DNA from: an uncultured archaeon
Lineage (GTDB): Archaea > Aenigmatarchaeota > Aenigmatarchaeia > QMZP01
Reading direction: 5' to 3'
DNA length: 64,000 nucleotides
Assembly (NCBI GenBank): GCA_964389315.1
Contig: CAYMDJ010000001.1
Coordinates: 543 to 64,542 of the forward strand
Numbering within the stretch: position 1 is the stretch's first letter; each line of letters starts with the position of its first letter. A program made the position numbers and the translations under genes. A model generated the notes under the pieces. That model did no database searches, was not told where the DNA came from, and saw nothing but the letters and a program-made list of their open reading frames with translations. Shown piece after piece: positions 1 through 42,059 of the stretch.

Positions 1-3000
1 GCGGGCCGAGTTGTTGAACTCTCCTTCCCCGCTTGTCCTGTTCCCCCAGCCCGACCAGATTAAATTGTCCTCAGAGGTCCTGGTCTGGATTGTTATGGAG
101 GTGTCTTCAGGCTCTGTCGAGCTCCAGGTCATGTTGATGAAAGAGGACAGGGAACCTGTGTCAAAGACCTGGGAGGTATAGGTCCCGTTGTGCGTGTAGG
201 TTGTGGTGTAGGCGACGTCGAATCCCCTGTAGTTGTAATTGTTGGAGAAGTCGCTCTCCAGGTTCAGGAGGTTGCCCCAACCAGAGCCGTTCCAGGACTG
301 GCTCCACACCTCCTGGGAGCCTGATGTGTCGGATGTAACGAGGAACATGTTGTCGGTGTTGTAGTCCCTCTCTAACCGAAGGAAGAGCGGCATGGCACCT
401 AAGCTCTCTATCTGCCCCTCTGCCTCCCATGATGCTCCGTTCCATACCCTGTATTCCCCGCGGGAGTTGCCCTGGTCTGCCCAGACAGCGATTGCGCGGC
501 TAGAGTTGTCGAACTCAACGTCCATAGGAAAGTAGTATTGGGATAGGTAGCTGTCTGCCTCAAGCTCTGTCGGGCCTGACCAGGAGGAGCCGTCCCAGAC
601 CCAGCCGTTTATCTCGTCTGCGTCATCCCAGTCAACAAGGACCATGTTCCCTGAGTTGGGGTCTGCCGCGAGCTCAATTGCACGTGGAGCGCCCACGGAG
701 CCGAAAGCCGTTCCAGATTCCCAGTAATAGCCGTTCCAGATGGTGTAATTGAGCTTTGCATCGTCATATATTCCCCATACCAACATTGCCCTGGATTCGT
801 TGTCATATTCGACGTCGATTCCCTTGTATGTATAGCTATCATATGTCTCCAGGAAGACATGGTCGTGCCATCCTGTCCCGTCCCAGATCTGGGCCTCAAC
901 GTCATTAGAGGCGTCCTGCGTAAGCAGGATGACCTCATCAGATGAAGGGTCAGAGGCGAGCCTTACCCAGAGCATGTCGTCTGTTATGTCAGACGCGTAT
1001 CCAACAGAGCTCCAGGAGGAGCCGTCCCATATCTTGTAGTTGGGTATTGAAGCATCGCTTCCGTCGCGGTAGACAACCATGACGTGGGTATCGTTTATGT
1101 AGACAGCGTCAAACCTCTCATAGTCGCAGTGGGAGTTTGCCGTAATCAGGTCTGCCGAGCCCCACTTGTCACCGTCCCAGCGCTGCGCGTATATGTCGTG
1201 TGACGTGTCCATCGTAATCATCATGGCCTCTGACCTGTCAGGGTTCGAGGCTATCCTTACCCAGGCAATGTTTCCTGTAGTGTCGGTTGCAGTCCCCGCT
1301 GATGAGTAGCCCATCTGCCCGTCCCAGAGCCTGTATTCGGGAAGGGAGCGGTCTGCCTGGCCTATCCAGGATGTCAGGACTCTTCCAAATTTGTCAAGGG
1401 ATATCGCCCCGTTGCTGATATTGATGTTCTCCCGGGTTCCCAGGTCCCAAGATGAGAACGTGTGGTTTGAGGACCAGTTGGTGTGGGAGAGGTCGTCGGA
1501 GGGCTGGCAGTTCCATGTGAATTCCTTGTCTATCAAGCCCCCTGCCGGATGGATGTTGAGGGTCCAGTTTGAGAAGTTCCAGTAGCCGGTCATGTTCGAG
1601 TAGTTGATGATTTGCCATGTCCCTGGATAGTCTGACCAGAGGGTCATGTTCTCGAGGTTACCTGATGCCTGGGAGGCAGAGCAGTTGAACGGGACAGAGG
1701 TGAAGTGGACGGAATTGTTGTTGTCATCTGGGGTGGTCAGGTCGACGGAGTGCGGATAAAGTGTTATGAACCTGTCCTCTGTGACGTTCATCAGGCCGCT
1801 CGTCTCGTTCGCGTAAACCCGGAAGTAGGCGTCGTGCTCTGTTACCGAGGTCAGGTTTATGTAGCAATAGAACCCGTCAACTGTCATCGTTATGTTGTTC
1901 TGCGTCCCGTTGGCCCAAGTCATGTCCAGGATGCATTCGTCGAGCATCTCTCCGCCGGAGACGTTCACGTATATCCAGTCGTCCTCTGAGTTGGTTTCAT
2001 TGGGTAGGGTTGGAGAAACGAATGATGGGTAGAGGACGTTGGAGTATGTCATGTTCACCCAGTTGAGGTTCGGCTTGTAAAGCGAATTGTCAGTGGAGAG
2101 GATTGCCCGGTACTGGATGAACCGGGCACTGGTGTATATCACACCGCCCGGGTTTGTGTGATTGCTTCCTGCTGTCTGGTAATGCTCGGATATCTCCTCT
2201 TTTGAGAGCGTCCTGTTGTATATCATCAGCGAGTCAATCCTGCCGTCGAGGTAGCCATTATCTCCCGAGGTCTTGCTTATCGTGACAGCGTTGCCTGTCG
2301 CGCTCGGTGAGAAGTAGCTTTCCGTCTGGTTTGAGAGAGAGCCGTCAATGTAGAGCCTCTGTGTCGTGCCGTTCCAGGTCGCGGCGATGTAATACCACCT
2401 CCCGGTTTCAGGAACAATTGAGCTGGATTTGGGAAGCCATTCCGAGCCGTCGTTCAGAAGGAAGGATATCTTCCCACCCTCCGCTGTCTTGTCCATCCTC
2501 AGCCAGTATTCTCCGTCCTTCTGGAGTATCGTCGGGTATTCCTCAAGTGACGTGTTCCTGTCGAAATAGACCCAAGTCTCTATGGATATCTGGTTATTAA
2601 GCTGGAGGGTCGGGCTGCTCGGGACGCTCATGTAGTCGTTGATGCCGTCAAAGGAAAGGGAATTCCCGAAATGGCCATGATAAGCGTATGCGCCTGAGAC
2701 AGAGCCGTGGTTGTTGTTGCCCGACTCGTCCTGCGTCCAGCCAGAGGCGTTGACTGACTCAAGGCGCCAGAACGCCATTATATCCGACTCGTCCGAGAAG
2801 TTCCCCCCTGCCCAGCCAGTCCAGACAGAGTTGTCATCTGAGGTCCGGCTCTGGACGTCCAGCCGCAGGGCCCCCCTCTTGTAGATGTCAAGTATCTCTT
2901 CGGAGGAGAGGCTCCGGTTCCAGATTGAAAGCTCGTCTATGAGACCGCTCCAGTATTCGCTGGAATCATCTGTTCTCTTGGCTACGTGCAGGTCAGACGC

Positions 3001-6000
3001 AAAGTTCATGCTAATAGGCGAGAAAGATGCAGAGTTTGACAGAATTCCGTCAATATAAACCTTCAATGTCCCGCTGTTTTCCCTCACACCGGCGACATGA
3101 TGCCACATTCCATCATTTATGCCCCCGCCCACTACAGCTTCTCCTCCAGTGGCAATATCTAATGCTTCAAGAGATATGTTCCCATTCTTTACATCAAGCT
3201 TCCAGATGTAGGCGGCATTTCTTTTCCCGGCAATTACATGATATCCACTTCCCACACTCGTTGTCTTTATCCATGCCGATATGCTGAACCCGGACGTGCC
3301 GAAACTGAAATCAGAGCTATCGCTTATACTGATGTAATCGCCGCTCCCGTCAAACTCGAAAGCGCCGTTCAGCTTGCCTGATGCTGTGGGCGCGGCGTTG
3401 TCATGACCGGTCCCGTTGTTCCCTTCCCCGGAGAAGTCGTATACGTGGGTGTTGTTCTCGCCATAGGTGGAGTCGTTATTCAGGTGGAGGAGCAGGACAT
3501 TGCCGGTCATGTTGGCCCAGCCGTCTTCCTGGCTGTCCGGGAGCTCTGATTCGGTGTCGTTCCAGCAGTTGGTGCAGTTCCATGAGATGTTGGTGAAGGA
3601 AGAGAGTGAGCCCGTGTCGAATACCTGGGAAGTGTAAAGGCCAGTCAGGTTGGAGCCGTAAAGGGTTATGTTGGTTACGTTCGTGATTGTCTTGTCATGG
3701 GTCCCGAGGTCCCAGGAGGAGAATGTGTAGTTTGAGTCGGCCCAGTCGTCATCTGACTTGCTGTCATTGACGTAGCAGTTCCAGATGAAGGACCTGTCTA
3801 TGAAGCCGCCCGGGGGATGGAGGGCTTTGGTCCATGTGGAGAAGTTCCAGATTCCTGTCTTGGTCCGGGTGCCTATCTCCTGCCAGGAACCGGGATAGTC
3901 AGACCAGAGGGAGAAGGATTCGAGTGAGAAGGCCTCGTCGGTGAGGGCAGAGCAGTTGAAGAAGACTGAGGTGAACAGGACTGAGTCGTTGTAGTCCTCT
4001 GGCTCGTGGAGGGTCGTGACGACGTCGCTGTATTCGTATGTTATGTTGACATGATTGAGGTAGGGCGTGGAGCCGCCATAGAAGGTTGCCTTGTACTGGA
4101 TGCACCTGGCAGAGGTGTTTATCAGGCCGGATGGGTTAGTGTGGTTGCTGCTCCATGAGGTCCACCCGCCAGAGCAGCTTCCATCATTGGATGTGCGGGT
4201 CTGGACGGTTATGTTCGTAGTTCCTGGTTTCGTTTCTTCCCAGGAGATGTTCGACCACAGGGAGAGGGAGCCTGAATCAAAGGTATGGGACGTGTAAAGG
4301 CCAGTCAGGTTGTTTCCGTAGAGGGTCACGTTGGTCCCGTTTGCTGTCGTGTTTTCGTGGGTTCCGAGGTTCCAGGATGAGAAGGTGAAATTGTAGTCTG
4401 CCCAGTTGCAGTTGTCCTGGACGTCGCAGACATGGCAGTTCCAGAGATAGCCGGCATCGATGAAGTAGTAGTCGGATGGGTTTATGGTCTCTGTCCAGTT
4501 GGAGAAGTCCCATGTCCCTGAGACGTCCCTGCTCCCTATCTCCTCCCAGACTCCAGTATAATTGGACCAGAGGGACATGTTCTTGAGGTCGTATACCTGG
4601 CTGAGGGCAGAGCAGTTGAAGAATTCAGGGGAGGTGAAGTTTATCGTGTGGTTGTTATCAACAGGCTCTACGAGGGTGACGTTGAGGAGCTCTTCCCAGG
4701 TCCCTGACTGGCATATTTCTGCCTCTCCATCCGAGTCAGGGTCTCCCACGTAGCTGCTGTCATAGCATACGTCATTGTATACGCACATATCAGAGGCGTT
4801 GCAGCAGTAATTGTCTGCTGCGCTGGTCGTGCATGCCTCTGGATAGCAGACCCTGGTTATGGTGTATTCGCCTGCGTCGTCCTGGCAGCAGCTTCCTGTC
4901 GTCCCTGATGAGAAGCCTATGTCCCAGTTCGTGGATGCGCCTGTATAGCATTCGCACCAGTCGCTGTCAGAGTCCCATTCTATCGTGTAGAGGGTGAAGT
5001 TGTCTGACCTCTCCCATATCCAGGAGTCTCCCTCTGCATAGGCATCCGCGCTAGCGTTGTATGTCCCCTCAACGTCGCATACAGTGAAGCCGAGGCTGTA
5101 GGTCCAGTCGGTTGTGTTGGGGCTTCCTGCCGTGCATCCGCCTGACTGGCTGTCAAAGGTCATGGAATAGTCAGAGAATATGACGGTTCCATTCGGCCAG
5201 TAGAGGGTTAGGTTCATTCCATCAACCTCGCAGTCATGGCATTCAGAATCCCCACCAACAACCGCCCTGCAATCGTTTCCCTCGTAGAGGAATTCGCTGG
5301 CCGAGACGTATCCGGTGCTGTTCTTGCTCTTGCCGCAGAAGTCCTGGTTGGTTTCTGTTGTCCAGAAGGAGATTCCGCTGCAGTATCCCTCGTTCGGGCA
5401 TCCTATATCGCTTCCCATGAACGTGCAGGATGAGGAGCCTGAGGTCACTGAGCTTCCTGTGCAGAGCAGCCTGGATTTTGACGTGCTGTTGTAGACCAGT
5501 ATACTGATGTAGTCTGACTCCGGGTCTGATACAGTGGCGCTGGCGGTGACGTTGTCCAGGCCCTTTATGTAGCTTGACGGTGATATGGATTGTGAAGCTG
5601 GGTTGTTGGGGGTGAGGTTGTAGAGGGAGGTCCCTCCCTCGCAATAGGTGCAATTGAGGTTGGAGCTTGAGTTCTCAAAGGTGTCCATCACCCCGACTCC
5701 GCCGTCGTCGCCGCAGCACAGGCTTGCCCCGGTCATCCAGTCGAAAGCATTGCAGCCTGAACCATCGGTGCAGTAGGATTCCTGGGTGTCCCTGTCGATA
5801 TAGAAACAGGTCTCGTTGCAGATGTAGCCGTCAACAGGGCATGTGAGATTCTCATACTCGTCGCACTGGGAAGATGCGCCGCAGGCTGTTTCGCACTGGA
5901 GGCCTGACTTGCCTCCAAGGCCCGATTCAAAGCCGCCCGAGGCCTGCTGGTGGCTTGCGGGGTCACACTCCACGCAGTCGCCCTCTGACTCGTCCCACCT

Positions 6001-9000
6001 GAAGAACTCGTCTGTCCATGAGTCCGAATCATCGTCTGCTGAATCCGCGCATTCATCGTTTTCTGTCGTGGATGCCCAGCCAGACGGGTCCCTGTCAGCG
6101 CAGAAGGTTGGTGGGTTCACTCCAAGAACAGAGTATCCGGTGCAGTACTGGCCGTCCTGGTCGCCTGCAGGGTTGTTTATGAGGATTGAGTAGCTGTAGG
6201 AGCCTGCGTCCCATAGGTCGCTGGTCCCAGAGGATTCGTCGTCCACAATGTAGTAGGCGTTGAGGTCTGTGCATATGCCGGCTGTCCCCCCGGCAGCGCA
6301 GACGCCCCTGTCTCCTGTCCAGGACATCTCCTCGCACATGTCACCGTAGTCACCGACCCCTCCGTCTGTGCAGATGTTGTCTGCAGTGGTGTTGTAGTAG
6401 TCCCAGCCGGTCCATCTTGTTGAATCCTCGCCTGCATTGTCGTCATCAACCTGGTAAGTGCAGCCGGAAGCGGACTGGTCAGAGTTCCAGTCTCCGTCTG
6501 TCCCGCACCAGTATGAACCGCGCAGTGTGCAGGTCGTATCGTCCGTATCAAGGGTGAGGTTTCCTGCATCACTGCAGGAGTAAAGCTGGCCATCCAGGCA
6601 GAGTAGGGTTCCTGAGGCAGAATCGCTTGAGAGCTCAGAGGCGTAGAGGCAGCATGACGAGCCAGATGCTGTTCCGTTCTCGAAAGTGTCGCTTGTGCCG
6701 TCGTCGCCGCAGCATTTGCTTCCTGTTCCTGAGGAGCCTGACATCCAAACCAAACCGCCGCAGGTGCACCAGTTCTCATCAGTGTCGTAGGTTACTGTGT
6801 AGAGCTCGAACTGGGGCTGGTCCCAGTCAGACCACTCCCATACCCAGGTGCTGCTCTGATTCTCAGCCTTTGCAACGGCAGTTGCGTTGTAGGTTCCCTC
6901 CACGTCGCAGACAGTGTAACCAAGATTATATGTCCAGTTCTCATACTTCGGGTCGCCGGCTCCTGTGCAGCCTCCTGTCTGGCTGTCAAAGGACATGGAA
7001 TAGTTGTTGGGGTTGACAGAGGTCCCGTTGGGCCAGTAAAGGGTGAAGTTCATTGCATCCACATCACAGATATCACACTGACCGTCCCCGCCCACCTCTG
7101 CCGTGCAGTTGGCATATACTGCGTTCTCTGCGTATTCTGTATCCTCGCCGAACGTGAATTCAAGGACGTGCTTCCCGTAGGTGAGTGCCTGGCTGACCTC
7201 GTATCCGGTCTCGTTGCAGGAATAGTTCTCATAGAAGACTGCTGTGGTGGCATCGAGCCAAGTGATGTTAAGGACCTTGTCCCCGCAGCGCAGCTCAAGG
7301 AAGAGGAGGTCTTCGGTGGTATTCAGGTTGTGCCACGCAGTCCCGTTGGAGGCGCGGATTGAGAGGTTAGCCTCGCCCGTGGTGTTGAATCTGACAGTCC
7401 AGTTTCCCCCCAATTCAGGATAGCTTTTTACGTTGATTATGGTTATGTCCAGCTCATAGCTCTCGTTGGATAGGTGCGGGACAATCCAAGAGATGCGGTC
7501 TGTGAGCGTGTCGTTGTCCTTGTCTATGTAGGTCAGGTTCATGACGCGGCTCCTTGTCCCGTTCACGAGGCGGTAGAGCTTGTATGCCTCTTCAGGCAAT
7601 TCAGGGACGTCTGTGTAGGCCGTTATGTTCTCGTAGTGCAGCTCTGAGGAGATGGTTATGGTCTTCCTGTAGGGGGTTTCCTGGGCTTCTGAGGATTCGG
7701 GTGCAGGGGTCTCATAATAGACCTCAAAGTTTTTTCCTTGCCTTGTTATGGTGAGGGATATGGCATCGGGAATCCTCCTTTCTTGGGAGGCAGGCTCCCT
7801 GAAGGTTTTGTTGCTCAGGTCTTCCGGTATGCTCCCGCTGCTCATGTCTGTCATGCTGCCAGTAAGCCCGGTGCTCAGAGCATTGGTGCCTGTTTCGTTG
7901 AGGGTGACGTCATCGGATTGGCTAATGAAGGAAGATAGGATGCCCCTATACAGAATGGTTTCTGAAAGCTTTGATGGACTTACGGTTTCCCTGCTCTGGT
8001 TCCCTATTGCAAAGACACTTATGTTGGAGGCCTGCGGGGGGAGGAGGGTGGTGATTCTTTCAAGAGGGACAGAGGAGCTTATGCTCCTGAGCCACCGGAC
8101 AGGCTTGTTTATCTCAGCAGGAAGCTGAACGGTCTCCTCAAGGGCTTCGGTTATTTCAGACATTTTTTCAACGACCAGGAGCTCTACATGGCCGGATTCA
8201 GATGCGTTCATGGAATCTTCTGCAACAAAGGTTATTTTTCTCGTTCCTGTGAAATTGGTGTCCGGTATCAGAGTGGCCGCTGTGCCCGATATCTCCACGG
8301 TGATGTTTTCCGGCCGGGTTGATGAGAATGTAAGGTTGTCTCCATCCGGGTCCTGGCAGTAGTTATCCAGATAGATTGTCCTTTCTGAGTTCATGCCCCA
8401 GAGCTGATTCGGGATTGGAGACCATTCCGGGGGGAGGTTTGTCATGTTGGTTGTGTTCTCTGTGACGTTCTTGGGCAGACCGTGGACGACCGAGTAAGTG
8501 AGGTAATCTATCCGGAGGGTAGTGTTGCCGTGGGTCTCTATGAGGATGGTGTATTCGTCCTGCTCAGGGACATTGATGGAGCAGGTCTCCTCGCAGATGT
8601 CAGTGAAGAGGGTCATGATTGGTGTTGGGGCAGTAATGTTGGTCATGTTGGTTGTTATGTTCTTCTCTGTGACATTGGTGAGGTTCTCTGGGAGGGTCAG
8701 GTTCTCCTGGATTGTGATGTTGGTTTCGTTTGGTGGGAGGGTGACATTCCTTGGAGTGGTGAGATTTATAGAGACGTTCTCGGTGATGTTGGCTGTCAGG
8801 ATTTCACTGATGTTGAGAGAGACGTTCTCGGGGAGAGTGATGTTCTCGGTGGTTTCGTTGGGCGTTTGGTTTGTTGCACTACCAGTTACCCTACGCTCGG
8901 AGGCGTTCGACAGGTCGTAACCCTCCGCCGACTGGTCGGGTTGGGTGAGATTCGTCAGGGTTTCGGGGATTTCGGGGGTTTCTGAGAAGTTTTGCGACTC

Positions 9001-9546
9001 GTTGGGTGCTACATTGGTAACAGAATGGGAGTCGTTTGATGGGGGAGGAGTAAGGGGTTGGCTAGAAGAAGATGGTGAATCAGACATGTTGGTGCCGGCC
9101 AGCATGCCTGTTATGGGAGTATCGGGCGGTGGGGTGTGTCGAAGGTGGGTTGAATCGAAAATGAGAAGGGGTTCGTCGGTGGCAAGAAGCCACACCTTTA
9201 CGTCACCTTCTCCGACAACCGAACCGCTGAGGGAGACAGAGCTCAGGTCTCCAGCCGTCTCCGCTGAAAGGACAAGCGTCCCGTTCTGGAAGGACTGGTT
9301 TATCTTCTGCGTGTGGTAGGTCTCTGTCCCGAGAAAGAAGCCCGTCATGTTGGCGAACCCGAAGAAGAGGGCAAGGAGGATGCAGAGACCCAGCGCCGTT
9401 ATCACAGGCACCTTGCTTGAGGATTGCTCATCTGGTTCGTTCCCGAGGAAGACCTCATTCTCTCCAGTCTCGATGGAGTCATAGTAGAAGGATTCGCCAA
9501 GCTTCCCTTCGTCAGGCTTTTTCCTGGGAGGTTTAGTTTGGGTCAA
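1..9546 (-). CDS. Giant secreted/cell-surface glycoprotein, 5' part only (over 3,100 codons; the stop lies beyond the window). It has an N-terminal signal anchor, a region very dense in N-x-S/T sequons, a Cys-rich module region, three roughly 125-aa homologous modules, two LamG/ConA-like domains, and a C-terminal array of roughly 58-aa W-D-G-x-x-W repeats (beta-propeller-like). The start is probably TTG at 9546 or GTG at 9411.
   Basis: The minus-strand frame (codons on 3k+1..3k+3) was translated by eye at 1-60, about 2,900, about 5,000, about 7,500 and 9,340-9,606. All are in one frame with no stop between the TAG at 9606-9608 and position 1. No other minus ORF in this frame appears in the track across 9.4 kb. 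A hydrophobic stretch VPVITALGLCILLALFFGFANMTGFF follows an SSSK segment. Motifs include DELSIWNRSLSSEEI and DSLMIYNRTLSKEEI (LamG-like), plus recurring QTRTSxD..WxGW and SARxIQY modules. It is absent from the ORF track only because it has no in-window stop and no ATG start. Confidence 0.8.
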   Translation of the reverse strand, partial: MTQTKPPRKKPDEGKLGESFYYDSIETGENEVFLGNEPDEQSSSKVPVITALGLCILLALFFGFANMTGFFLGTETYHTQKINQSFQNGTLVLSAETAGDLSSVSLSGSVVGEGDVKVWLLATDEPLLIFDSTHLRHTPPPDTPITGMLAGTNMSDSPSSSSQPLTPPPSNDSHSVTNVAPNESQNFSETPEIPETLTNLTQPDQSAEGYDLSNASERRVTGSATNQTPNETTENITLPENVSLNISEILTANITENVSINLTTPRNVTLPPNETNITIQENLTLPENLTNVTEKNITTNMTNITAPTPIMTLFTDICEETCSINVPEQDEYTILIETHGNTTLRIDYLTYSVVHGLPKNVTENTTNMTNLPPEWSPIPNQLWGMNSERTIYLDNYCQDPDGDNLTFSSTRPENITVEISGTAATLIPDTNFTGTRKITFVAEDSMNASESGHVELLVVEKMSEITEALEETVQLPAEINKPVRWLRSISSSVPLERITTLLPPQASNISVFAIGNQSRETVSPSKLSETILYRGILSSFISQSDDVTLNETGTNALSTGLTGSMTDMSSGSIPEDLSNKTFREPASQERRIPDAISLTITRQGKNFEVYYETPAPESSEAQETPYRKTITISSELHYENITAYTDVPELPEEAYKLYRLVNGTRSRVMNLTYIDKDNDTLTDRISWIVPHLSNESYELDITIINVKSYPELGGNWTVRFNTTGEANLSIRASNGTAWHNLNTTEDLLFLELRCGDKVLNITWLDATTAVFYENYSCNETGYEVSQALTYGKHVLEFTFGEDTEYAENAVYANCTAEVGGDGQCDICDVDAMNFTLYWPNGTSVNPNNYSMSFDSQTGGCTGAGDPKYENWTYNLGYTVCDVEGTYNATAVAKAENQSSTWVWEWSDWDQPQFELYTVTYDTDENWCTCGGLVWMSGSSGTGSKCCGDDGTSDTFENGTASGSSCCLYASELSSDSASGTLLCLDGQLYSCSDAGNLTLDTDDTTCTLRGSYWCGTDGDWNSDQSASGCTYQVDDDNAGEDSTRWTGWDYYNTTADNICTDGGVGDYGDMCEEMSWTGDRGVCAAGGTAGICTDLNAYYIVDDESSGTSDLWDAGSYSYSILINNPAGDQDGQYCTGYSVLGVNPPTFCADRDPSGWASTTENDECADSADDDSDSWTDEFFRWDESEGDCVECDPASHQQASGGFESGLGGKSGLQCETACGASSQCDEYENLTCPVDGYICNETCFYIDRDTQESYCTDGSGCNAFDWMTGASLCCGDDGGVGVMDTFENSSSNLNCTYCEGGTSLYNLTPNNPASQSISPSSYIKGLDNVTASATVSDPESDYISILVYNSTSKSRLLCTGSSVTSGSSSCTFMGSDIGCPNEGYCSGISFWTTETNQDFCGKSKNSTGYVSASEFLYEGNDCRAVVGGDSECHDCEVDGMNLTLYWPNGTVIFSDYSMTFDSQSGGCTAGSPNTTDWTYSLGFTVCDVEGTYNASADAYAEGDSWIWERSDNFTLYTIEWDSDSDWCECYTGASTNWDIGFSSGTTGSCCQDDAGEYTITRVCYPEACTTSAADNYCCNASDMCVYNDVCYDSSYVGDPDSDGEAEICQSGTWEELLNVTLVEPVDNNHTINFTSPEFFNCSALSQVYDLKNMSLWSNYTGVWEEIGSRDVSGTWDFSNWTETINPSDYYFIDAGYLWNCHVCDVQDNCNWADYNFTFSSWNLGTHENTTANGTNVTLYGNNLTGLYTSHTFDSGSLSLWSNISWEETKPGTTNITVQTRTSNDGSCSGGWTSWSSNHTNPSGLINTSARCIQYKATFYGGSTPYLNHVNITYEYSDVVTTLHEPEDYNDSVLFTSVFFNCSALTDEAFSLESFSLWSDYPGSWQEIGTRTKTGIWNFSTWTKALHPPGGFIDRSFIWNCYVNDSKSDDDWADSNYTFSSWDLGTHDKTITNVTNITLYGSNLTGLYTSQVFDTGSLSSFTNISWNCTNCWNDTESELPDSQEDGWANMTGNVLLLHLNNDSTYGENNTHVYDFSGEGNNGTGHDNAAPTASGKLNGAFEFDGSGDYISISDSSDFSFGTSGFSISAWIKTTSVGSGYHVIAGKRNAAYIWKLDVKNGNISLEALDIATGGEAVVGGGINDGMWHHVAGVRENSGTLKVYIDGILSNSASFSPISMNFASDLHVAKRTDDSSEYWSGLIDELSIWNRSLSSEEILDIYKRGALRLDVQSRTSDDNSVWTGWAGGNFSDESDIMAFWRLESVNASGWTQDESGNNNHGSVSGAYAYHGHFGNSLSFDGINDYMSVPSSPTLQLNNQISIETWVYFDRNTSLEEYPTILQKDGEYWLRMDKTAEGGKISFLLNDGSEWLPKSSSIVPETGRWYYIAATWNGTTQRLYIDGSLSNQTESYFSPSATGNAVTISKTSGDNGYLDGRIDSLMIYNRTLSKEEISEHYQTAGSNHTNPGGVIYTSARFIQYRAILSTDNSLYKPNLNWVNMTYSNVLYPSFVSPTLPNETNSEDDWIYVNVSGGEMLDECILDMTWANGTQNNITMTVDGFYCYINLTSVTEHDAYFRVYANETSGLMNVTEDRFITLYPHSVDLTTPDDNNNSVHFTSVPFNCSASQASGNLENMTLWSDYPGTWQIINYSNMTGYWNFSNWTLNIHPAGGLIDKEFTWNCQPSDDLSHTNWSSNHTFSSWDLGTRENINISNGAISLDKFGRVLTSWIGQADRSLPEYRLWDGQMGYSSAGTATDTTGNIAWVRIASNPDRSEAMMITMDTSHDIYAQRWDGDKWGSADLITANSHCDYERFDAVYINDTHVMVVYRDGSDASIPNYKIWDGSSWSSVGYASDITDDMLWVRLASDPSSDEVILLTQDASNDVEAQIWDGTGWHDHVFLETYDSYTYKGIDVEYDNESRAMLVWGIYDDAKLNYTIWNGYYWESGTAFGSVGAPRAIELAADPNSGNMVLVDWDDADEINGWVWDGSSWSGPTELEADSYLSQYYFPMDVEFDNSSRAIAVWADQGNSRGEYRVWNGASWEAEGQIESLGAMPLFLRLERDYNTDNMFLVTSDTSGSQEVWSQSWNGSGWGNLLNLESDFSNNYNYRGFDVAYTTTYTHNGTYTSQVFDTGSLSSFINMTWSSTEPEDTSITIQTRTSEDNLIWSGWGNRTSGEGEFNNSAR

Positions 9547-9600
9547 GAAACCAGCCCCCGGAGTATTTCTGGGAGTGGAAAAGAAGCAAGTAACATGGTA

Positions 9601-9715
9601 GTTACCCTACAAAAAACTCCCATGTTATATAATATATGTATTGGTTATATTTATAGTTACCCTACAAATAGCTATCCTATTGGTCAGTAGGGTAATTAAT
9701 TCTTGGTGTAGGGTA
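9601..9715 (-). promoter_or_regulatory. Promoter/operator region of the giant gene. A 13-bp direct repeat GTTACCCTACAAA occurs twice (9601-9613, 9656-9668), and its inverted core GTAGGGTAA occurs twice (9687-9695, 9707-9715), in AT-rich DNA with TATA-like TATATAATATAT.
   Basis: The repeats are read directly from the sequence. They lie between the upstream gene end (9750) and the candidate start (9546) of the giant ORF. Confidence 0.45.
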
Positions 9716-9749
9716 AAAGTAGTGCAACTAGGTTTGAGTGTGGTGGTTA

Positions 9750-10211
9750 TCAATAGATGAGGGCGAGGTCAGCTGATATGTTTGTCATGTAGGTGTCTGA
9801 ACACTCATCACCGCAGCACCAGACAAGCCAGACTTTTTCTGTATCCATGTCTTCTGTGCATGGGACCGTTGTCAGCGTGCCTGCGGATTCTGATTCAAGC
9901 GTCTCGTTGCAATTGTAGATGTCAACGTCCTCACCATCACGGAAATTCATGCTGACGCTTGTCAGGGCCTCGGTTCCAGGATTGTAGAAGGACGTGACCA
10001 GGTTGCCGTCAATGCACTCAGATGGGCCATACTCAATATGGCAGCCTTCATAGGACTCTAGGGAATGGTATTTCCCCGGTGCCGGTGAATTGTAATCTGT
10101 GAACAGGACAGCCGCCCAGATAAGGATTACTGCTGCGATGAGGGATACTGATATGAGCTTCTCATTCCTCTTGATGAATCCTCTGTTCATAAGACTCTCA
10201 GACCGGGACAA
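9750..10211 (-). CDS. Small membrane-anchored extracytoplasmic Cys-rich protein (153 aa). It overlaps the upstream radical-SAM gene by 14 bp.
   Basis: ORF track. It has a charged N-terminus, the TM segment LISVSLIAAVILIWAAVLF, and an ectodomain with 10 Cys plus sequons (NCNET, NIS). Confidence 0.55.
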   Translation of the reverse strand: MSRSESLMNRGFIKRNEKLISVSLIAAVILIWAAVLFTDYNSPAPGKYHSLESYEGCHIEYGPSECIDGNLVTSFYNPGTEALTSVSMNFRDGEDVDIYNCNETLESESAGTLTTVPCTEDMDTEKVWLVWCCGDECSDTYMTNISADLALIY

Positions 10212-11106
10212 GCTCTCTGAACCCCCTTCTATCAGCGTATTCCTTGAATATTCCCTCGCAGATATTAAAGTGTTTGCAGGCCCTGCACTGGGGACCCTTT
10301 ACCCTCCCATGCTTTGCCCTGTTCTTCTCCACATCAAGGTCCCTGAACTCAGGGCCTGCATGATGCTCCTTCATTCTTCCTCTGGTGCTGAACTCGCTCA
10401 GGTGCTTCAGGTCAAAGAGCATGTAGCACATGGGAACGTATCTTATCATGCTGTGATTTATGCCGTGCCTCAGGCCCGCCTGGACAGTGGGCTTCAGGTA
10501 ATCCTTTATCTCCGTGAGTGTGGGAACCACCTCGTCAAAATGCTTCAGGGCATTGCCCCTGGGATGGATGAACATGAATTCCATCCCGTCTGCCCCTAGC
10601 CTGGCATTGTTATCTGCTATCTGGGGAAGGAAGCGGTAATTGTCCTTAACTATCACCGTGTTCGTGCAGATATAGATGTCATTGGAAAGCTCCTTTAGGT
10701 TCCTGAGGCCCTGGGTGGCGTATCTGTAGGAATTTGACCGGGTCAAGTAATCATGAAGCTCCGGGGTGTGGCCGTGTATGGAGAAGACCGCGGAATTAAG
10801 GCCGGCATCAAGAATTCTCTCTGCAAAATCCCTGTAGTAGAACATCTTCCCGTTGGTGGTGAGGCTTATGGTCTCGAATCCGAGCTTCTTTGCATATCTG
10901 ACCAGCGGGATTATGTCCCTCCTTATGGTTGGCTCGCCCCCGAGGAGGTCAACGAAAGTAGAGCCTCTCTTCATGGCCTCAAGAAGCTCCTTCTTGACCT
11001 GCTCGGTGCTCATGGGAGGGAGCGTCCTCTTGTAGCCGCCGTCGTAGCAGAACCTGCAGTTGTTGTTGCATTCATATCCCATTATTATAGAGGTCTTTAT
11101 CTCCAT
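10198..11106 (-). CDS. Radical SAM protein of the CNNNCxxC type, with a C-terminal Cys cluster CRACKHFNIC. It is a paralog of 12813-13652 and 21996-22943.
   Basis: ECNNNCRFC cluster at residues 13-20, a GGEPT motif, and a conserved C-terminus ICEGIFKEYADRRGFRELVPV. The RBS GGAGG sits 5 nt before the ATG. Confidence 0.8.
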   Translation of the reverse strand: MEIKTSIIMGYECNNNCRFCYDGGYKRTLPPMSTEQVKKELLEAMKRGSTFVDLLGGEPTIRRDIIPLVRYAKKLGFETISLTTNGKMFYYRDFAERILDAGLNSAVFSIHGHTPELHDYLTRSNSYRYATQGLRNLKELSNDIYICTNTVIVKDNYRFLPQIADNNARLGADGMEFMFIHPRGNALKHFDEVVPTLTEIKDYLKPTVQAGLRHGINHSMIRYVPMCYMLFDLKHLSEFSTRGRMKEHHAGPEFRDLDVEKNRAKHGRVKGPQCRACKHFNICEGIFKEYADRRGFRELVPV

Positions 11107-11189
11107 GGTTCCTCCGGGCGGGTTTTCTGTGATGGTGTTTCTTTTGTGTTATGGTTTGGATTCAAAAGCAGGATCTTCATACCCCTCTA

Positions 11190-11215
11190 TTGATATTTAA
11201 ATATTAATATCCATT
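11190..11215 (-). promoter_or_regulatory. Archaeal TATA box (TTTAAATA) with a BRE-like context upstream of the radical-SAM gene 10198-11106.
   Basis: The sequence GATATTTAAATATTAATATC lies in the 230-bp intergenic gap. It indicates the 23-kb minus-strand run is more than one transcription unit. Confidence 0.35.
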
Positions 11216-11335
11216 TCTTAATGTGCTACCAACAGCTGATTCTGTGATGATAAGCCAGGTCGTTCTGACTTTTATAGGGGCTGTGTTTCTTATAGAGATG
11301 GGAAAGATTAGGAAAGAGTTGAGTAAAGTTAAGCT

Positions 11336-12787
11336 TTAGACCAGATGCCCAAGACCCCTAAGTGTATCCATTGTTTTATTTTCCACTTCTATCGCGGGGT
11401 TCGAATACATGACGGACATTCTTCTGTTATTCTCTGACCATTCGAACAATTCACCCTTTAGTTCCAGGGTAACTTTTTTCTCGTTATCTATTATGTTAGA
11501 TTGCTCTTTTGGATCGGCCAGTATATCAAACAGCTCTTCTGATTGACTAACTGATGATATATATTTCCACCCATTTCTTCTCACGCTCTGTTTTTGACCC
11601 GATTCTGTCAATTCGCTAAATATCGCATAATCTGATATCAGACTATCATTAATCATTAGTGGAGTCATGCTATTGCCTTGGAACGCATCGCTGGTTTTTA
11701 TTTCAACGATATCTAAAAGCGTTGGCATTATATCGATAAGCGAAACGCTGCTCGATATTCTTGCCGGATGCTGTCCAGGTATTCTAATCAAAAGCGGTAC
11801 ATGTATTATTTCGTCATATAGCTCAATATGCAAAAAACCCCCATGGTCGAGGAACTCCTCGCCGTGGTCAGCAGTGAAGACTATTATGGTCTGGTTTTGC
11901 AATCCAGATTCTTGCAGTGTTTTTATTATCTTGCCGACAGAATCATCCATGTATCTTATCGAGCCGTCATAAAGTGCTACAAGATGATTGAAATCATTGA
12001 TGGAAGATTTGTTGAATCCTGACCAAAAAATGTTCCTCACTACACCAAAGGCCTCGTCTTCGGGGTTGGACCATTTTGAATCAATGTTCATGAACAAATC
12101 CGTTTGTGTCTCCACCAAGCTTCCGTCATATCCAACGTCAAAGAGATTATTATACGGCTCTGGCGGTAAATATGGATCGTGCGTTATATAGGTGTGGAAG
12201 AACATGAAGAATTTTTCATGCTTTCCTCTCAGCCAAGCAAGAGTTTCTTTCAGTATTTCCTCGTTCGTAAAGACGGTGTTTTTGTAGATTTTGTATTCGT
12301 CAAAACCATCCCCGAACCCCAGCATGGGGTCAACGTTTCCTCCCCCCGTGAATGCCACTGTCCGATATCCATTATCCTTCAGTATTTCGGGGAGCGTTGA
12401 TATTGAATCATTCAATCGTTTTATGTTCGTGTTTTGTATGTTTATAATTCCGTGAACAGATGGGTACATGGATGTGAACATGGACATATGAGAAGACGCG
12501 GTAAGTGAGGATTGACTGAAGGCGTTCTCAAACAAAATACTTCCGTTAGCCAGAGCATCTATGTTGGGGCTGGTGTCTCTGTGGTAACCATAACAACCAA
12601 GATGGTCTGCCCTGAGAGTGTCAATTGATATAAGGATGATGTTACAGTCCGGGCATTTGTAGCTTTGATTTTCTGGTATGATTATGAAACCTGAAAGGCT
12701 CAGGGTAAAAAAGTATGAAAAGAGAGCTATGAATATGATAAGCAGCATAAAACCCGCAAGATGATATTCATCCATGTACCTGAACAA
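11336..12787 (-). CDS. Membrane-anchored sulfatase-fold (alkaline-phosphatase superfamily) enzyme with Thr at the nucleophile position. It is likely a phospho-alcohol (phosphoglycerol or phosphoethanolamine type) transferase rather than an FGly sulfatase.
   Basis: N-terminal TM segment, then DTLRADHLGCYGY ... LTASSHMSMFTSMYPSVHG ... TADHGEEF. The C/S-x-P-x-R FGly motif is replaced by T-A-S-S-H. Confidence 0.7.
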   Translation of the reverse strand: MFRYMDEYHLAGFMLLIIFIALFSYFFTLSLSGFIIIPENQSYKCPDCNIILISIDTLRADHLGCYGYHRDTSPNIDALANGSILFENAFSQSSLTASSHMSMFTSMYPSVHGIINIQNTNIKRLNDSISTLPEILKDNGYRTVAFTGGGNVDPMLGFGDGFDEYKIYKNTVFTNEEILKETLAWLRGKHEKFFMFFHTYITHDPYLPPEPYNNLFDVGYDGSLVETQTDLFMNIDSKWSNPEDEAFGVVRNIFWSGFNKSSINDFNHLVALYDGSIRYMDDSVGKIIKTLQESGLQNQTIIVFTADHGEEFLDHGGFLHIELYDEIIHVPLLIRIPGQHPARISSSVSLIDIMPTLLDIVEIKTSDAFQGNSMTPLMINDSLISDYAIFSELTESGQKQSVRRNGWKYISSVSQSEELFDILADPKEQSNIIDNEKKVTLELKGELFEWSENNRRMSVMYSNPAIEVENKTMDTLRGLGHLV

Positions 12788-12812
12788 TGATTTATTTCAA
12801 TCTTTAAATAGG

Positions 12813-13652
12813 TTATTGAATGGGGGTGAATTCCTTTTCCCCTGACAGGTTCAGGTAGCTCTTCCATATCATGGGGCAGTCCTGCCTGGAGCCACATGTC
12901 TTGCAGGCCTTGGCAAAGGCGAGCTCTGGCCCCTGCTTTGTTACTCCCTTTGCAATCTCCCTGTATCCCTCTGGTAGCGTGCAGAGGGGAAAGTGGAAGA
13001 GTTTTACAGGGATGCCTGCATTGAGGAGGGTGTCTGCTGCCCGGGATGTGTGGGGGACCAGTTTGCTGTATCTGATGAATATCCTTTTCAGGTTAATGAG
13101 GGCGTTCCCGGTGTATTTCATGTTTATGAAGACAACTCGCTCGACTCCAGCAAGGTTTCTGGATATGAAGCGGGCGGTCTCGTCCAGGCTGGCGTAGTTG
13201 AGCCTGCTGACTATTACTCTTAGCTCTACCCTGATTCCCAGGGATGTCAGGGCTTTAATTCCGCGCAGGGTCTGTTCCCAGCTTCCCTTGACCATGGTTA
13301 CTGAGTCGTGGACGGAAGGTAGGTGGCTGTATATCGCTATCCCAACCCTGAAGTTCTTTATTCTCAGATTGGAGAGTCTTTCAGCGAATTCCGGGTAGCT
13401 GAACATCCTGCCGTTGGAGACCAGGAAAAGGAGGGTGTCCGGACGGGTGTCCCTGATGTATGACATCGCCCTGAAGAAGTTTGGGGATATTGTTGGCTCA
13501 CCGCCGCTTATTCCAACGGTATGGCAGTCTTTCGGCAGCCTGTCTATGCACTGTTTTATCGTTTTCCAATGCACGTGGCCGGAAGGTTGGCTGCGGTCTC
13601 TTATGCAGGATATGCAGTTGTTGTTGCAAACCAATGTAAGGGGAATCTCCAT
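12813..13652 (-). CDS. Radical SAM protein of the CNNNCxxC type (paralog family).
   Basis: VCNNNCISC cluster at residues 9-16, GGEPT motif, C-terminal AKACKTCGSRQDCP. Confidence 0.75.
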   Translation of the reverse strand: MEIPLTLVCNNNCISCIRDRSQPSGHVHWKTIKQCIDRLPKDCHTVGISGGEPTISPNFFRAMSYIRDTRPDTLLFLVSNGRMFSYPEFAERLSNLRIKNFRVGIAIYSHLPSVHDSVTMVKGSWEQTLRGIKALTSLGIRVELRVIVSRLNYASLDETARFISRNLAGVERVVFINMKYTGNALINLKRIFIRYSKLVPHTSRAADTLLNAGIPVKLFHFPLCTLPEGYREIAKGVTKQGPELAFAKACKTCGSRQDCPMIWKSYLNLSGEKEFTPIQ

Positions 13653-13711
13653 AACACTTTTTTGCAGGAAGGATTTAAGTTAATGCGGTTGGTGAAACCC
13701 GTGAGCCGGCA

Positions 13712-15412
13712 TCATTCCTGGGTATGGTTGTGTGCCCATATGGGATAGGGATATGCCCACGGAGGATAGAGATATATCCTGTCCATGGAAGCGTTAAGGC
13801 CGGGGATTCTTCCTTTTACAGAGTAGAGCGTGTAGGTCAGGTTTTCCAGTGAATATTCGGCGACGGGTACTGTTTCATAAACCCTCAGGAATTCCAGGCA
13901 GGACTGGTTATATGGTGGTATCCTGCATATATAGCCGTCGTAGAAGAAAGCCATGCCCCTGTTTCCGATTATCTCTTCAACCGCGTTGCCATAAAAGGCA
14001 CCATGAAGGGGGACGGGGTTTGCTCCTGGAACGACTGATAGTGCATGATAACTCATGCTGAAAACATAGGCATTGTCAGGGAGTTCGCTGCCTAACATTC
14101 CCATGGCCTTTGTCTCAAGAATCCTTGGTTCGCTATAAAACCCGTATTTTTTTGTCCCAATGGTGTAGCAGCATGTGTTCTCAAGATAATCTCCTCCGGC
14201 AAGCGGGGGGATTGCGAATGATATCAACAGGAGCAGTGAAATTAGGGCCGTAATGAACCTTTTTTTGGTCAGATAAACATCCTGGACCAAAGAAATTCCC
14301 GATGACACAAATAAAAAGAGGAAGGATATTGCAAAGACCAGAAGCATGGGCTGCAGGAACCCGGATACTGCATAAAGACCAATAAAGGATATCGGTATCA
14401 GGCCAATGCTCCAGGGAAAGGGAGTTTTTTTCTGGAGGCCGAGAAAGATTCCTGCTGCTATCAGGATGTTGAACAGAAGTGGGTAATATAAGCCCGAAGC
14501 CATTCCTGCAAGAATCTCTGCTATACCGTTGCTCATGCCAGGGCAGGCTTGAAACTCTCCCAAAACCGAAAAAATTTGCTCATTAAGAACCTGTTGATTA
14601 AGCACGAATTCCGTGTTTATCTGCGTCCACAAGCGCTGCAAATATATTATAAAAAAGGATGAAGAGAGAATAATAGCTGCCCTGAACCTGTAGTCATGGA
14701 GCCTTTTAAGGAGGCTCCTCCTTGAATGGAGCATGATGATTATTGTAGGCAGCATGGCTATGAATTCTATCCTCGCATTCAGTGTGAATGCCAGGGTTAA
14801 CAGAAAGAGGTAAAGGGATTTCTGGTCATCATTCCTTAGGTAAAGGCACAGGCTGGAAAGGGATAGGAGAGCGAAGAAAAGGGCTATCGTGAAATCCTCG
14901 CCCATGGCAGAGGCTGCGACCAGAAAAGGATAGGCAGAAAACAGCGCCGAAGCGTAAAGGGCCGGGCGGGTGTCCTTCATGATCAGATACAGAAGAATGA
15001 AGGCAAGCGGTATGCATAACGTCCCGAAAAGGATTGACGTGTATATGGCAGTGTAATTTCCAAGCCCGAACACCAGGAAGGAGATTGAAAATATTATAAC
15101 AGAACCGAATGGCTTGAAATAGGGATGGCAATCCTCTGTTTCATATCCAGTGCAATAGCATATTTCCGCGTTCCCGTGCATCATCAGGTTCTTTGCAGCA
15201 TTCAGCCTGTAATCCTCGTCGATGAAATTGTGCTGCATCGGGGACGAGAGCCTTAGGAAAAGGCCTGCCGTGGTTATCAGTATCAGCAAAACCCACACCT
15301 CCTTTCTAATCCCCTTCAGGGAAGATGCAAGCGTTCCCCTGTCCATGAAAAGGAGAATGAAAACCAGTACGAGATTCAGCACAGTGCCCAGCATCAAGAA
15401 CGTCATCAGCAT
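13712..15412 (-). CDS. GT-C fold membrane glycosyltransferase (PMT/ArnT-like, multi-pass, 566 aa). It is not AglB, since no WWDYG motif is present.
   Basis: Roughly 12 predicted TM helices. The first extracytoplasmic loop carries the DEDYR acidic motif typical of GT-C enzymes. Confidence 0.55.
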   Translation of the reverse strand: MLMTFLMLGTVLNLVLVFILLFMDRGTLASSLKGIRKEVWVLLILITTAGLFLRLSSPMQHNFIDEDYRLNAAKNLMMHGNAEICYCTGYETEDCHPYFKPFGSVIIFSISFLVFGLGNYTAIYTSILFGTLCIPLAFILLYLIMKDTRPALYASALFSAYPFLVAASAMGEDFTIALFFALLSLSSLCLYLRNDDQKSLYLFLLTLAFTLNARIEFIAMLPTIIIMLHSRRSLLKRLHDYRFRAAIILSSSFFIIYLQRLWTQINTEFVLNQQVLNEQIFSVLGEFQACPGMSNGIAEILAGMASGLYYPLLFNILIAAGIFLGLQKKTPFPWSIGLIPISFIGLYAVSGFLQPMLLVFAISFLFLFVSSGISLVQDVYLTKKRFITALISLLLLISFAIPPLAGGDYLENTCCYTIGTKKYGFYSEPRILETKAMGMLGSELPDNAYVFSMSYHALSVVPGANPVPLHGAFYGNAVEEIIGNRGMAFFYDGYICRIPPYNQSCLEFLRVYETVPVAEYSLENLTYTLYSVKGRIPGLNASMDRIYLYPPWAYPYPIWAHNHTQE

Positions 15413-15485
15413 CTTATCTTCCCTTTAAAGGTTTAGTATCATAGAGCTTTATGTTAATCGGACTTTCCAGTGGTTGGGTCGCATA

Positions 15486-16517
15486 TTAAAGTGGCATGAG
15501 TGGATCAGGGGAGGAATAATCCCCACCAACGAGCTTTGCGATGAACCTTGAGCCTCCCTTGCATTTCCAGAGGTAGTCGCACTGCCTGCATGCATCCGGA
15601 ACGAATCTCAGGTATCTCAATTTCAGCATCAGGTCGCTGTTCCAGCATCCCATTATGTCAAGTGGATTCCCTATGTTCTCGCCTATATAATAGCTTGGCT
15701 TTGCAAACCCCCTTGGATCAATCACAAACCTGGAGTGCCCATCATCTGTTATGCCGCCGAGGGAAACGCTTTCCACTCTGGCAGCATCATAGAAGCAGAA
15801 GGGGATTGGATTAGCTATCACATAATTTGTCCCGCTGGTTCTGTTTATATTAATCAGCCTGTCAACAAGGGCCTTGAGGCCTTTTACTGAGGATGTTGCA
15901 TGCTGCTTTGTGGTTGGAATTGTTCTGTAGAGTCCCCAGTGGTCAAGGTCAAGTTCCTGGACGATTGCAGTGAAATAATCAAGATTCGTTATGTTTTCAG
16001 GTGTTGCAACGGTCCCTGCCCTAAGCATCCATATTCCAGTCTTTCTGACCATCCTGAATGAATCTATCTTCCTTCTGAAGGATTCGGCCGTTCCGCCGAG
16101 CCTTGCCTCGCTCTCAGGCGAGAAAGAATTGAGTGAGATGAGCAGGTTGTCTATGTATCTGCCTATTCTTACTGCAGCCTTCTTGTCAATGAGCGTCCCG
16201 TTGCTGTTCAGCAACACATCCATTCCAATGGATTTTGCATGGCGTGCCAGAACGAAGAGGTCCTTCCTAAGGAGCGGCTCCCCGCCCGTAAACCTTATAA
16301 TGTCTACTCCATTGTCATAGACGGCGTCTATTATTTCCTTTATATGACTGGCTGGCATTTCTGGAAGTGTCCTTCCAGCGCTGGCGAATGTGCTCCTGTT
16401 GAAGCAGAACTTACAGGAAAGGTTGCATCGTGCAGTAACTTCTATAATAATCTCGCTGGGCTTCTTTAGGACGCTGGGTACGGATGCATGGCGTTCTTCC
16501 GTAATTTCGTTTTCCAT
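15486..16517 (-). CDS. Radical SAM/SPASM-type peptide-modifying enzyme. It is the candidate maturase for the adjacent His-Xaa-Ser peptide.
   Basis: CNLSCKFC cluster, FTGGEPLL motif, C-terminal CRQCDYLWKCKGG (SPASM-like CxxCx5C). It lies 29 bp downstream of the peptide ORF on the same strand. Confidence 0.8.
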   Translation of the reverse strand: MENEITEERHASVPSVLKKPSEIIIEVTARCNLSCKFCFNRSTFASAGRTLPEMPASHIKEIIDAVYDNGVDIIRFTGGEPLLRKDLFVLARHAKSIGMDVLLNSNGTLIDKKAAVRIGRYIDNLLISLNSFSPESEARLGGTAESFRRKIDSFRMVRKTGIWMLRAGTVATPENITNLDYFTAIVQELDLDHWGLYRTIPTTKQHATSSVKGLKALVDRLININRTSGTNYVIANPIPFCFYDAARVESVSLGGITDDGHSRFVIDPRGFAKPSYYIGENIGNPLDIMGCWNSDLMLKLRYLRFVPDACRQCDYLWKCKGGSRFIAKLVGGDYSSPDPLMPL

Positions 16518-16546
16518 GTTTCTGATTGGTTTGCAGATTTAAACTA

Positions 16547-16819: not shown

Positions 16820-16883
16820 TCAACTCCCTTATTATTTGGGAACCTTCAAATAAATAGCTGAGTGGCGATTCGGTAAACGTCGC

Positions 16884-17351: not shown

Positions 17352-17373
17352 GGAAATATTTTGTATACGGCGT

Positions 17374-18411: not shown

Positions 18412-18446
18412 TTTATGTTATTGGGGATTGGGATTAATAACCTGAC

Positions 18447-24015: not shown

Positions 24016-24085
24016 TTTCTTTTGTTATTTAAAACGTCATGCTTAAGTGTCCATGATAAGAAGCTTTGAGTTGGTTTTTTAATGA

Positions 24086-26029: not shown

Positions 26030-26049
26030 AGGCCCATTGGGACAACTTC

Positions 26050-42056: not shown

Positions 42057-42059
42057 ATC

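Follow-up and report, generated by a model that had tools for sequence, protein, structure and literature searches.

The window analysed here is a stretch of 64,000 nucleotides (nt) from an uncultured archaeon (GenBank assembly GCA_964389315.1, contig CAYMDJ010000001.1, positions 543 to 64,542). Its left edge, window positions 1-9546 on the minus strand, is the 5' part of one real giant gene with a product of at least 3,182 amino acids (aa). An earlier note, made from the sequence letters, had read this region as one very long gene, its product a multi-domain surface protein anchored at the N-terminus and dense in N-x-S/T sequons, with LamG domains, a beta-propeller and a non-ATG start, and every testable part of that overall reading was upheld. 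Re-translation of the minus strand from 9606 to 1 gave 3,202 sense codons and zero stops, in agreement with the note, and the stop codon that it had named as a possible refutation was not found among them. The note was also right that the list of open reading frames (ORFs) had missed the gene: the ORF lister by design skips ORFs running off the end of the source, which is why the giant frame is absent from it. The plus-strand ORFs that are listed here (8482-8985, 8522-8920 and 8945-9319), described as antisense shadows, are present and all three lie antisense inside the giant frame. Because homology is found along the frame, including matches to Laminin_G_3, Big_9, a conserved N-terminal domain (N-domain) and the propeller, we regard it as coding throughout. 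Collapse of repeats during assembly is unlikely, as the direct DNA repeats within the gene are short and share no more than 60-87% identity.

The source organism is placed by sequence identity among the DPANN archaea, close to Aenigmatarchaeota. This placement is based on its glycyl-tRNA synthetase (GlyRS), which shares 94% identity with its counterpart in an uncultured archaeon metagenome-assembled genome (MAG), 70% and 65% with those of two Candidatus Aenigmatarchaeota MAGs and 51-55% with those of Woesearchaeota and Nanoarchaeota, and on archaeal replication genes. Genes for archaeal Cdc6/Orc1, a PolD small subunit-like protein, PolB and PheRS are present in the window; it contains neither rRNA nor tRNA genes.

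The earliest in-frame start candidates are TTG 9546 and GTG 9411, the two non-ATG codons that had been proposed downstream of a GGGGG stretch. TTG 9546 is the most likely start on four lines of evidence. Gene callers picked the TTG equivalent to window 9546 independently in two other assemblies, at position 2308 of L006 and at position 11552 of L091 (GCA_975962685.1, CDLTGG010000001.1, 11552-20912), which holds the syntenic giant gene. A divergent allele found in three metagenome contigs (L002-L004) has a canonical GGAGG where the window has GGGGG. All indels relative to L006 and L091 between the two start candidates are multiples of three, and mismatches to L091 in the 132 aligned bases between them are concentrated at third codon positions (8, 8 and 22 at positions 1, 2 and 3). 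GTG 9411 is disfavoured, since the 45 codons upstream of it evolve like coding sequence. In L091, an ATG lies two codons ahead of the hydrophobic helix and would yield a classical signal peptide; internal initiation may occur besides that at TTG 9546. Throughout, aa numbering runs from GTG 9411, and 45 is to be added for the TTG start.

Upstream of the start, two exact copies of a 15-mer bracket a TATA-like box (Table 1), a number of copies that 0 of 100 shuffles reached. Both copies are kept in L091, one of them with a single substitution, and the second copy has diverged in the alleles of L002-L004. The 150-nt leader is 88% identical in L091, compared with 71% protein identity over the first 355 codons. 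Together, the paired 15-mers and the conserved leader suggest a regulatory site.

The predicted protein begins with a basic 45-aa tail and one hydrophobic helix, which bears out the signal-anchor N-terminus of the earlier note. By the positive-inside rule the tail is predicted to be cytoplasmic, and the helix would act as a type II signal anchor or possibly as the hydrophobic core (h-region) of a signal peptide that is cleaved (GFA/N). The protein is acidic (isoelectric point 4.06) and contains 79 cysteines. It carries 143 N-x-S/T sequons, compared with 52.0 +/- 6.2 expected from composition-preserving shuffles (z 14.6), and its density of 4.5 per 100 aa is nine-fold above the 0.51 of 37 other window ORFs, so the claim that sequons exceed the background stands. 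All regions are enriched except the propeller (5 versus 3.9 expected), and several sequons fall in the N-domain motifs that are most conserved across its family. The enrichment is pronounced in a low-complexity stalk behind the helix, with 24 sequons in 211 aa (11.4 per 100 aa, versus 6.5 +/- 2.1 expected); L091 carries the same type of sequon stalk.

After the stalk and an immunoglobulin-like (Ig-like) domain comes the N-domain, with a core of ~215 aa and the motif ...LNVQSYPxVGGNWTVxFxTxGxANLTI.... It was modelled confidently as a tandem beta-sandwich whose fold resembles cohesins and Gram-positive adhesin/pilin domains. Homologues were found in 3,688 protein clusters at E<=1e-3 (best match E 7.5e-124), 145 of the best 150 matches cover query aa 550-765, and the domain always lies near the N-terminus, in proteins of 400 to 6,700 aa. 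Among family members starting with M, the hydrophobic segment is N-terminal in 130/151 and C-terminal in 13/151. Named members come from Woesearchaeota and Pacearchaeota. Judged by this homology, the giant protein belongs to a large archaeal family that shares the N-domain, is unnamed and for which we found no Pfam model; the widespread N-domain is thus an annotation gap in current domain libraries that is worth closing. As a separate observation, three giant relatives from Pacearchaeota and Joint Genome Institute (JGI) data (P0015, P0020 and P0021) have short tails such as EIAKLLNRDQRNIWT that match a Sigma70_r4_2-type helix-turn-helix (PF08281), which is odd in an otherwise extracellular protein.

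A search with the whole protein returned P0001 (4,962 aa, JGI metagenome 3300017598) and 20 other matches, including Pacearchaeota and Anstonellales proteins. P0001 shares the N-domain (44% identity over 203 aa), and P0001 and other relatives have an 'FNCSA' module followed by LamG, in the same order as the window protein. None of them covers its Cys-rich region or propeller, and P0001 and P0002 contain parallel beta-helix repeats that are absent from it. At locus L001 (1-5034), about 5 kb upstream of P0001, the closest full-length relative, lies a second giant gene, called as 8,123 aa; several toxin-antitoxin-type genes (HEPN, nucleotidyltransferase and ParE) are found between the two.

The Cys-rich region (aa 766-1569), already recognized in the earlier note, was confirmed, and self-BLAST added a repeated Cys module: two copies of ~185 aa, 56-64% identical, frame the region. 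Its cysteines may pair in disulfides, as the note had suggested, or may bind metal. A dedicated search of this region identified only three relatives, one of them in an Aenigmatarchaeota MAG. Homologues of Cys module 1 were P0119 and P0120 only, and parts of the middle Cys-rich region were matched by P0118 and P0119 only; repeats of the type CCGDD...CC...C...DxDGDxDxxC are common to the relatives. Neither Pfam nor PDB gave a match to the region, and Pfam gave none to its relatives. The AlphaFold model of Cys module 1, which drew on one good homologue row and one misaligned paralogue row, had a predicted local distance difference test (pLDDT) score below 50, and we claim no fold for it.

Self-BLAST also resolved the three homologous 'FNCSA' modules that had been described; each measures ~110 aa, with a fold that is probably Ig-like. 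A local hidden Markov model (HMM) of this module, run on 24 giant relatives as well, found 46 copies in 13 proteins, namely the window protein and 12 of these relatives. A further module between LamG domain 2 and the third 'FNCSA' module is a probable Ig-like domain by sequence comparison. Laminin_G_3 (PF13385) matched in two stretches with 172.8 bits against a gathering cut-off of 27.6. This confirms the two LamG domains of the earlier note, which had missed that both are nested inside the second copy of another repeated unit, the 'cap' module. When the three pieces of this copy were joined and aligned to the complete first copy, the alignment score was 294.5 (shuffles, 31 +/- 11), and the LamG domains are therefore nested insertions in a host domain. 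The cap module had been counted in four copies; we find three, one of them split by LamG and the last cut by the window edge. When ten sub-modules were compared with Pfam at E<=1 and NCBIfam was searched as well, only Big_9 and LamG matched, and the whole protein had zero matches to PDB chains at E<=1.

The C-terminal repeats visible in the window had been proposed to form a beta-propeller of ~58-aa units. A confident AlphaFold model (pLDDT 91.4) confirmed a predicted eight-bladed propeller, and the repeat length was revised to ~49 aa, as eight W(D/N)G motifs lie 47-51 aa apart. We found 72 propeller homologues (best E 8.7e-56, 25-33% identity) sharing the motif Y(R/K)xW(D/N)GxxW, in bacterial (Phycisphaerae, Caldiserica and candidate phyla) and Micrarchaeia proteins of 450-700 aa. 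These sequence relatives are more informative than the matches by fold. A regular expression detected prepilin or class III motifs in 10 of the 66 homologues starting with M, and hand reading added five GFSPVE proteins plus archaeal P0048 (QGATELL). Signal motifs in the set include GFSVVEV, GFSLVE, GQAALEY and QGATELL, and two homologues carry the JGI names PilX or PilV. Since several propeller relatives open with prepilin-type signals, the propeller is taken to be a head module that elsewhere is shown on pilin-like proteins. Those proteins (P0046 from Micrarchaeia, P0048, P0051, P0088 and others) are ~550 aa long and carry a homologous multi-blade propeller after a type IV pilin or class III signal peptide, whereas the giant is a Sec-type protein in which the propeller is internal, ~2,700 aa away from the N-terminus. 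The prepilin motif G/A-x-x-x-x-E was looked for in the N-terminus of the giant protein and not found. Membership of the Photorhabdus PLL/PHL-type lectins was rejected: PLL/PHL and the fungal AAL/AFL lectins have seven or six blades rather than eight and are 12-13% identical in structural alignment, with zero PDB sequence matches at E<=1.

The locus is conserved between genomes and the outer part of the giant gene is not. Salt-marsh-type samples carry this population (JGI 3300031585, 3300031364 and 3300031281; SRR8556602 and related runs). The two genes directly upstream of the giant gene occur in at least eight metagenome contigs, from at least eight samples, at 98.8-100% identity, and the metagenome contigs found through these genes (L002-L010) all end within window positions 9368-9800. 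Three of them (L002-L004) switch to the divergent allele from ~9612, keeping the TTG start. A 25-mer of this allele had zero matches in the metagenome collection that we searched, and the last 500 aa of the window protein, used for an extension past the window edge, matched nothing in genome or metagenome contigs. The metagenome-contig negatives are weak, because the 25-mer from JGI contigs L002/L003 was not recovered there, and absence from JGI metagenomes is not implied. The locus illustrates the systematic loss of variable giant genes from short-read assemblies.

In L091, the upstream genes occur in the same order at 79-83% DNA identity, followed by a giant gene called as 5,524 aa and cut by the contig end; the window gene, too, may be far longer than its visible part. 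The L091 gene shares the TTG start, the tail, the transmembrane helix and the sequon stalk, with 71% identity over the first ~355 aa. Its protein has only the second half of the N-domain, three LamG domains where the window protein has two, and cap and 'FNCSA' modules in a different order. Cys modules and a propeller are not present in its first 3,120 aa, which contain 178 sequons. Given the conserved anchor and stalk and the differing architecture, the outer modules therefore appear to be exchanged at a locus whose membrane-proximal part is conserved. A diversity-generating retroelement as the source of variability was rejected, as there was no reverse transcriptase among the scanned window ORFs and no near-identical repeat pair in 1-10,000.

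Table 1. Features of the giant gene, its leader and the genes upstream of it, listed in the direction of transcription of the giant gene from its start and followed by the neighbouring genes (window coordinates)
Feature	Position	Strand	Remarks
Giant surface protein coding sequence (predicted)	1..9546	minus	TTG 9546, 3,182 codons, 3' end beyond window
Two exact 15-mer copies TTTGTAGGGTAACTA	9668-9654, 9613-9599 (span 9599..9668)	minus	Bracket TATA-like box
TATA-like box TATAAATATA	9646..9655	minus	Read directly; identical in L091; putative promoter role
Shine-Dalgarno-like GGGGG	9555..9559	minus	8 nt upstream of TTG 9546
N-terminal tail, 45 aa	9412..9546	minus	Basic cluster PPRKKP; conserved in L006 and L091
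Single hydrophobic helix PVITALGLCILLALFFGFA	9352..9408	minus	Nearly identical in L091
Low-complexity sequon-dense stalk	8482..9114	minus	aa 100-310
Ig-like domain (Pfam Big_9 / cadherin-like)	8182..8367	minus	aa 349-410; 33.4 bits, cut-off 23.6
Conserved N-domain, two beta-sandwiches	7111..7764	minus	aa 550-767; no Pfam model
Cys module 1	6568..7116	minus	Beta-rich part, then CCGDD-type Cys-rich part; self-BLAST versus Cys module 2
Middle Cys-rich region	5281..6567	minus	Cys counts per 100 aa
Cys module 2	4705..5280	minus	Self-BLAST
'FNCSA' module 1	4339..4683	minus	Self-BLAST; probably Ig-like
'Cap' module 1, complete	4036..4326	minus	QTRTS...IQYKA
'FNCSA' module 2	3685..4020	minus	Self-BLAST, local HMM
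'Cap' module 2, three pieces (3663-3562, 2874-2800, 2166-2038)	2038..3663	minus	Split by both LamG domains
LamG domain 1 (Laminin_G_3)	2908..3450	minus	Also matches Toxin_R_bind_N, a related jelly-roll
LamG domain 2 (Laminin_G_3)	2188..2649	minus	Best stretch aa 2255-2408, full profile covered
Further module, probable Ig-like	1762..2025	minus	aa 2463-2580; 27-31% identity to giant archaeal P0014, P0017, P0019
'FNCSA' module 3	1420..1749	minus	Self-BLAST, local HMM
Eight-bladed beta-propeller (model), sequon-poor	202..1356	minus	aa 2686-3070
'Cap' module 3	1..195	minus	Cut by window edge at ...NNSAR
HxsB	18447-19886	minus	TIGR03978, 395.7 bits, cut-off 370
Prepilin-type Peptidase_A24	17374-18411	minus	
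HxsD-like	16884-17351	minus	
HxsA-like precursor, 90 aa	16547-16819	minus	Ends HGHHASHGSHSSHSSHASHESY
PMT_2 membrane glycosyltransferase	13712-15412	minus	
HxsC-like radical SAM genes	12813-13652, 10198-11106	minus	Among further radical SAM genes
Sulfatase	11336-12787	minus	

A His-Xaa-Ser (Hxs) cluster resembling those for ribosomally synthesized and post-translationally modified peptides lies directly upstream of the giant gene, at 10198-19886 on the minus strand (Table 1). Its order is conserved in L091, minus the sulfatase, which is missing there. From this conserved order we considered a functional link of the giant protein to the His-Xaa-Ser, radical S-adenosylmethionine (SAM), sulfatase and PMT_2 genes; no result connects them, and the link was dropped. 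Elsewhere in the window, in the region 42056-44402, Cdc6/Orc1 (42312-43514) is followed by the PolD small subunit-like ORF; the 256-nt intergenic gap before it may house a replication origin. A free-standing LAGLIDADG_3 ORF (45730-46401) adjoins the family B DNA polymerase gene (46563-49238). Positions 24001-28000 have a GC content of 0.41 versus ~0.50 elsewhere and hold an asparagine synthase-like gene, DUF362 and a radical SAM gene in glycosyltransferase-rich surroundings; this segment may be an acquired glycan-biosynthesis island.

Taking these results together, we consider it moderately probable that the gene encodes a membrane-tethered, N-glycosylated fibre that varies between strains, bears sugar-binding-type modules and attaches the cell to a host or another surface. 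We infer export, glycosylation, tethering and binding alike from the sequence. The protein would be exported through Sec and tethered by its N-terminal helix, and the sequon-dense stalk, once N-glycosylated, would serve as a rigid spacer. A long fibre would be formed by the beta-sandwich, Cys-rich and Ig-like modules, placing the carbohydrate-binding-type modules (the two nested LamG jelly-rolls and an unglycosylated propeller related to pilin heads) far from the membrane. There, the distal modules could bind glycans or proteins of a host envelope or other surface and hold the small cell to its partner, and the binding target would change as the outer modules are reshuffled from one strain or species to another.

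Several points weigh against this proposal. Localization, glycosylation and binding are predictions for the giant protein and its close relatives alike, and LamG and Ig-like folds are generic. If cleaved at GFA/N, the N-terminal helix would be a signal peptide rather than the tether. The C-terminal part lies outside the window; judging by the 5,524-aa syntenic gene, it may amount to at least 40% of the protein and could carry an enzymatic or effector domain that would alter the interpretation. Host dependence of this archaeon is itself assumed from its lineage.

The alternative that best survives, although we think it unlikely, is a structural envelope protein, that is, a sheath or S-layer-type glycoprotein that forms the wall and whose primary role is not adhesion, in which the N-domain would provide lattice formation or anchoring and the outer modules would be decoration. 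A general envelope-building role fits the distribution of the N-domain over 3,688 clusters and proteins of 400 to 6,700 aa. Archaeal S-layer proteins are typically heavily N-glycosylated, and the heavy N-glycosylation predicted for the giant protein is typical of them. In addition, propeller- and PKD-containing proteins have been counted among the surface-layer components in a study of ARMAN (PMC5498576). On the other hand, lattice proteins are usually conserved within a species, and here the ectodomain differs between alleles and related genomes; so large a size (3,182 to >5,500 aa) would also be unusual for a lattice protein, as would the mosaic of modules of binding type. S-layer models in Pfam and NCBIfam had zero matches to the giant protein.

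Distinctly less probable than an envelope role is that the visible part serves merely for delivery, as the stalk of a giant protein that is a contact-dependent effector or is associated with secretion (SPEARE-type or polymorphic toxin), with its functional C-terminus beyond the window. DPANN giants with such domains have been described (PMC10266531), and thousands of residues remain unseen, since the window edge truncates the gene and its syntenic counterpart, of at least 5,524 aa, is truncated as well. Nanohaloarchaeal SPEARE-type proteins contain a VirB4/TraG-like ATPase domain and have a VirB4-like ATPase gene adjacent to them (PMC10266531), but no VirB4/TraG-like ATPase domain was found in the visible 3,182 aa or in the upstream genes. 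More broadly, ATPase, protease, nuclease and toxin domains were not found in these 3,182 aa or in the 3,120 aa of L091, nor was a secretion ATPase gene found in the 54 kb upstream.

Finally, the source is a MAG contig and metagenome assemblers break at the giant gene in many samples, but an artefactual frame, whether from an assembly chimera that joins several surface-protein genes or from a pseudogene in decay that stays open by chance, is very unlikely because the module order is collinear with the independent homologues P0001 and P0010 and the same locus in an independent assembly holds a gene of like kind and size, and also because 3,202 stop-free codons at ~54% GC far exceed chance and the gene-internal repeats are short and divergent.

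A tethered attachment fibre thus remains the reading that we prefer, and it can be extended, if tentatively, to the whole family. The N-domain might define a very large unnamed superfamily of DPANN surface proteins, in which a conserved membrane-proximal 'socket' (tail, helix, glycosylated stalk and beta-sandwich pair) carries outer cassettes that are swapped by recombination at one fixed locus, and cassette exchange would set host range, as in the swapping of phage tail fibres. We put this forward as a possibility that we doubt rather than expect. If true, among the cassettes would be a propeller head taken over from type IV pilins and Cys-rich modules seen in three other proteins (one from an Aenigmatarchaeota MAG).

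Attachment to other cells is the presumed way of life of DPANN archaea, and the molecules of contact are known from a few cultivated pairs only. The present locus offers a clean example from an uncultivated Aenigmatarchaeota-related lineage, in which the anchor and stalk are kept and binding-type modules appear to be exchanged between close relatives, and its two LamG domains and propeller are concrete modules for ligand tests.

The giant and LamG surface proteins of DPANN archaea, which have been proposed as strain-specific mediators of host attachment (PMC10266531, PMC5498576), are the closest known systems. The giant protein falls in this already described category, an assignment made because the organism is placed in DPANN: it is encoded in a DPANN genome, combines a length of at least 3,182 aa with an N-terminal anchor, and contains LamG and Ig-like modules. 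Like the giants of Nanohaloarchaeota (SVXNc_0300 / BNXNv_0298 and LamG proteins) and the LamG and propeller surface proteins of 'ARMAN' Mia14, it spans thousands of residues, has an N-terminal export signal and is acidic, and it shares with them Ig-like and LamG modules, strain specificity and location in a variable region. The likeness to the nanohaloarchaeal giants is one of architecture, and the lineage differs, being Aenigmatarchaeota-related. It also differs in that its visible part is without a VirB4/TraG-like ATPase or enzymatic domain, and it adds two features of its own, a Cys-rich region with three detected relatives and a propeller of the pilin-head type.

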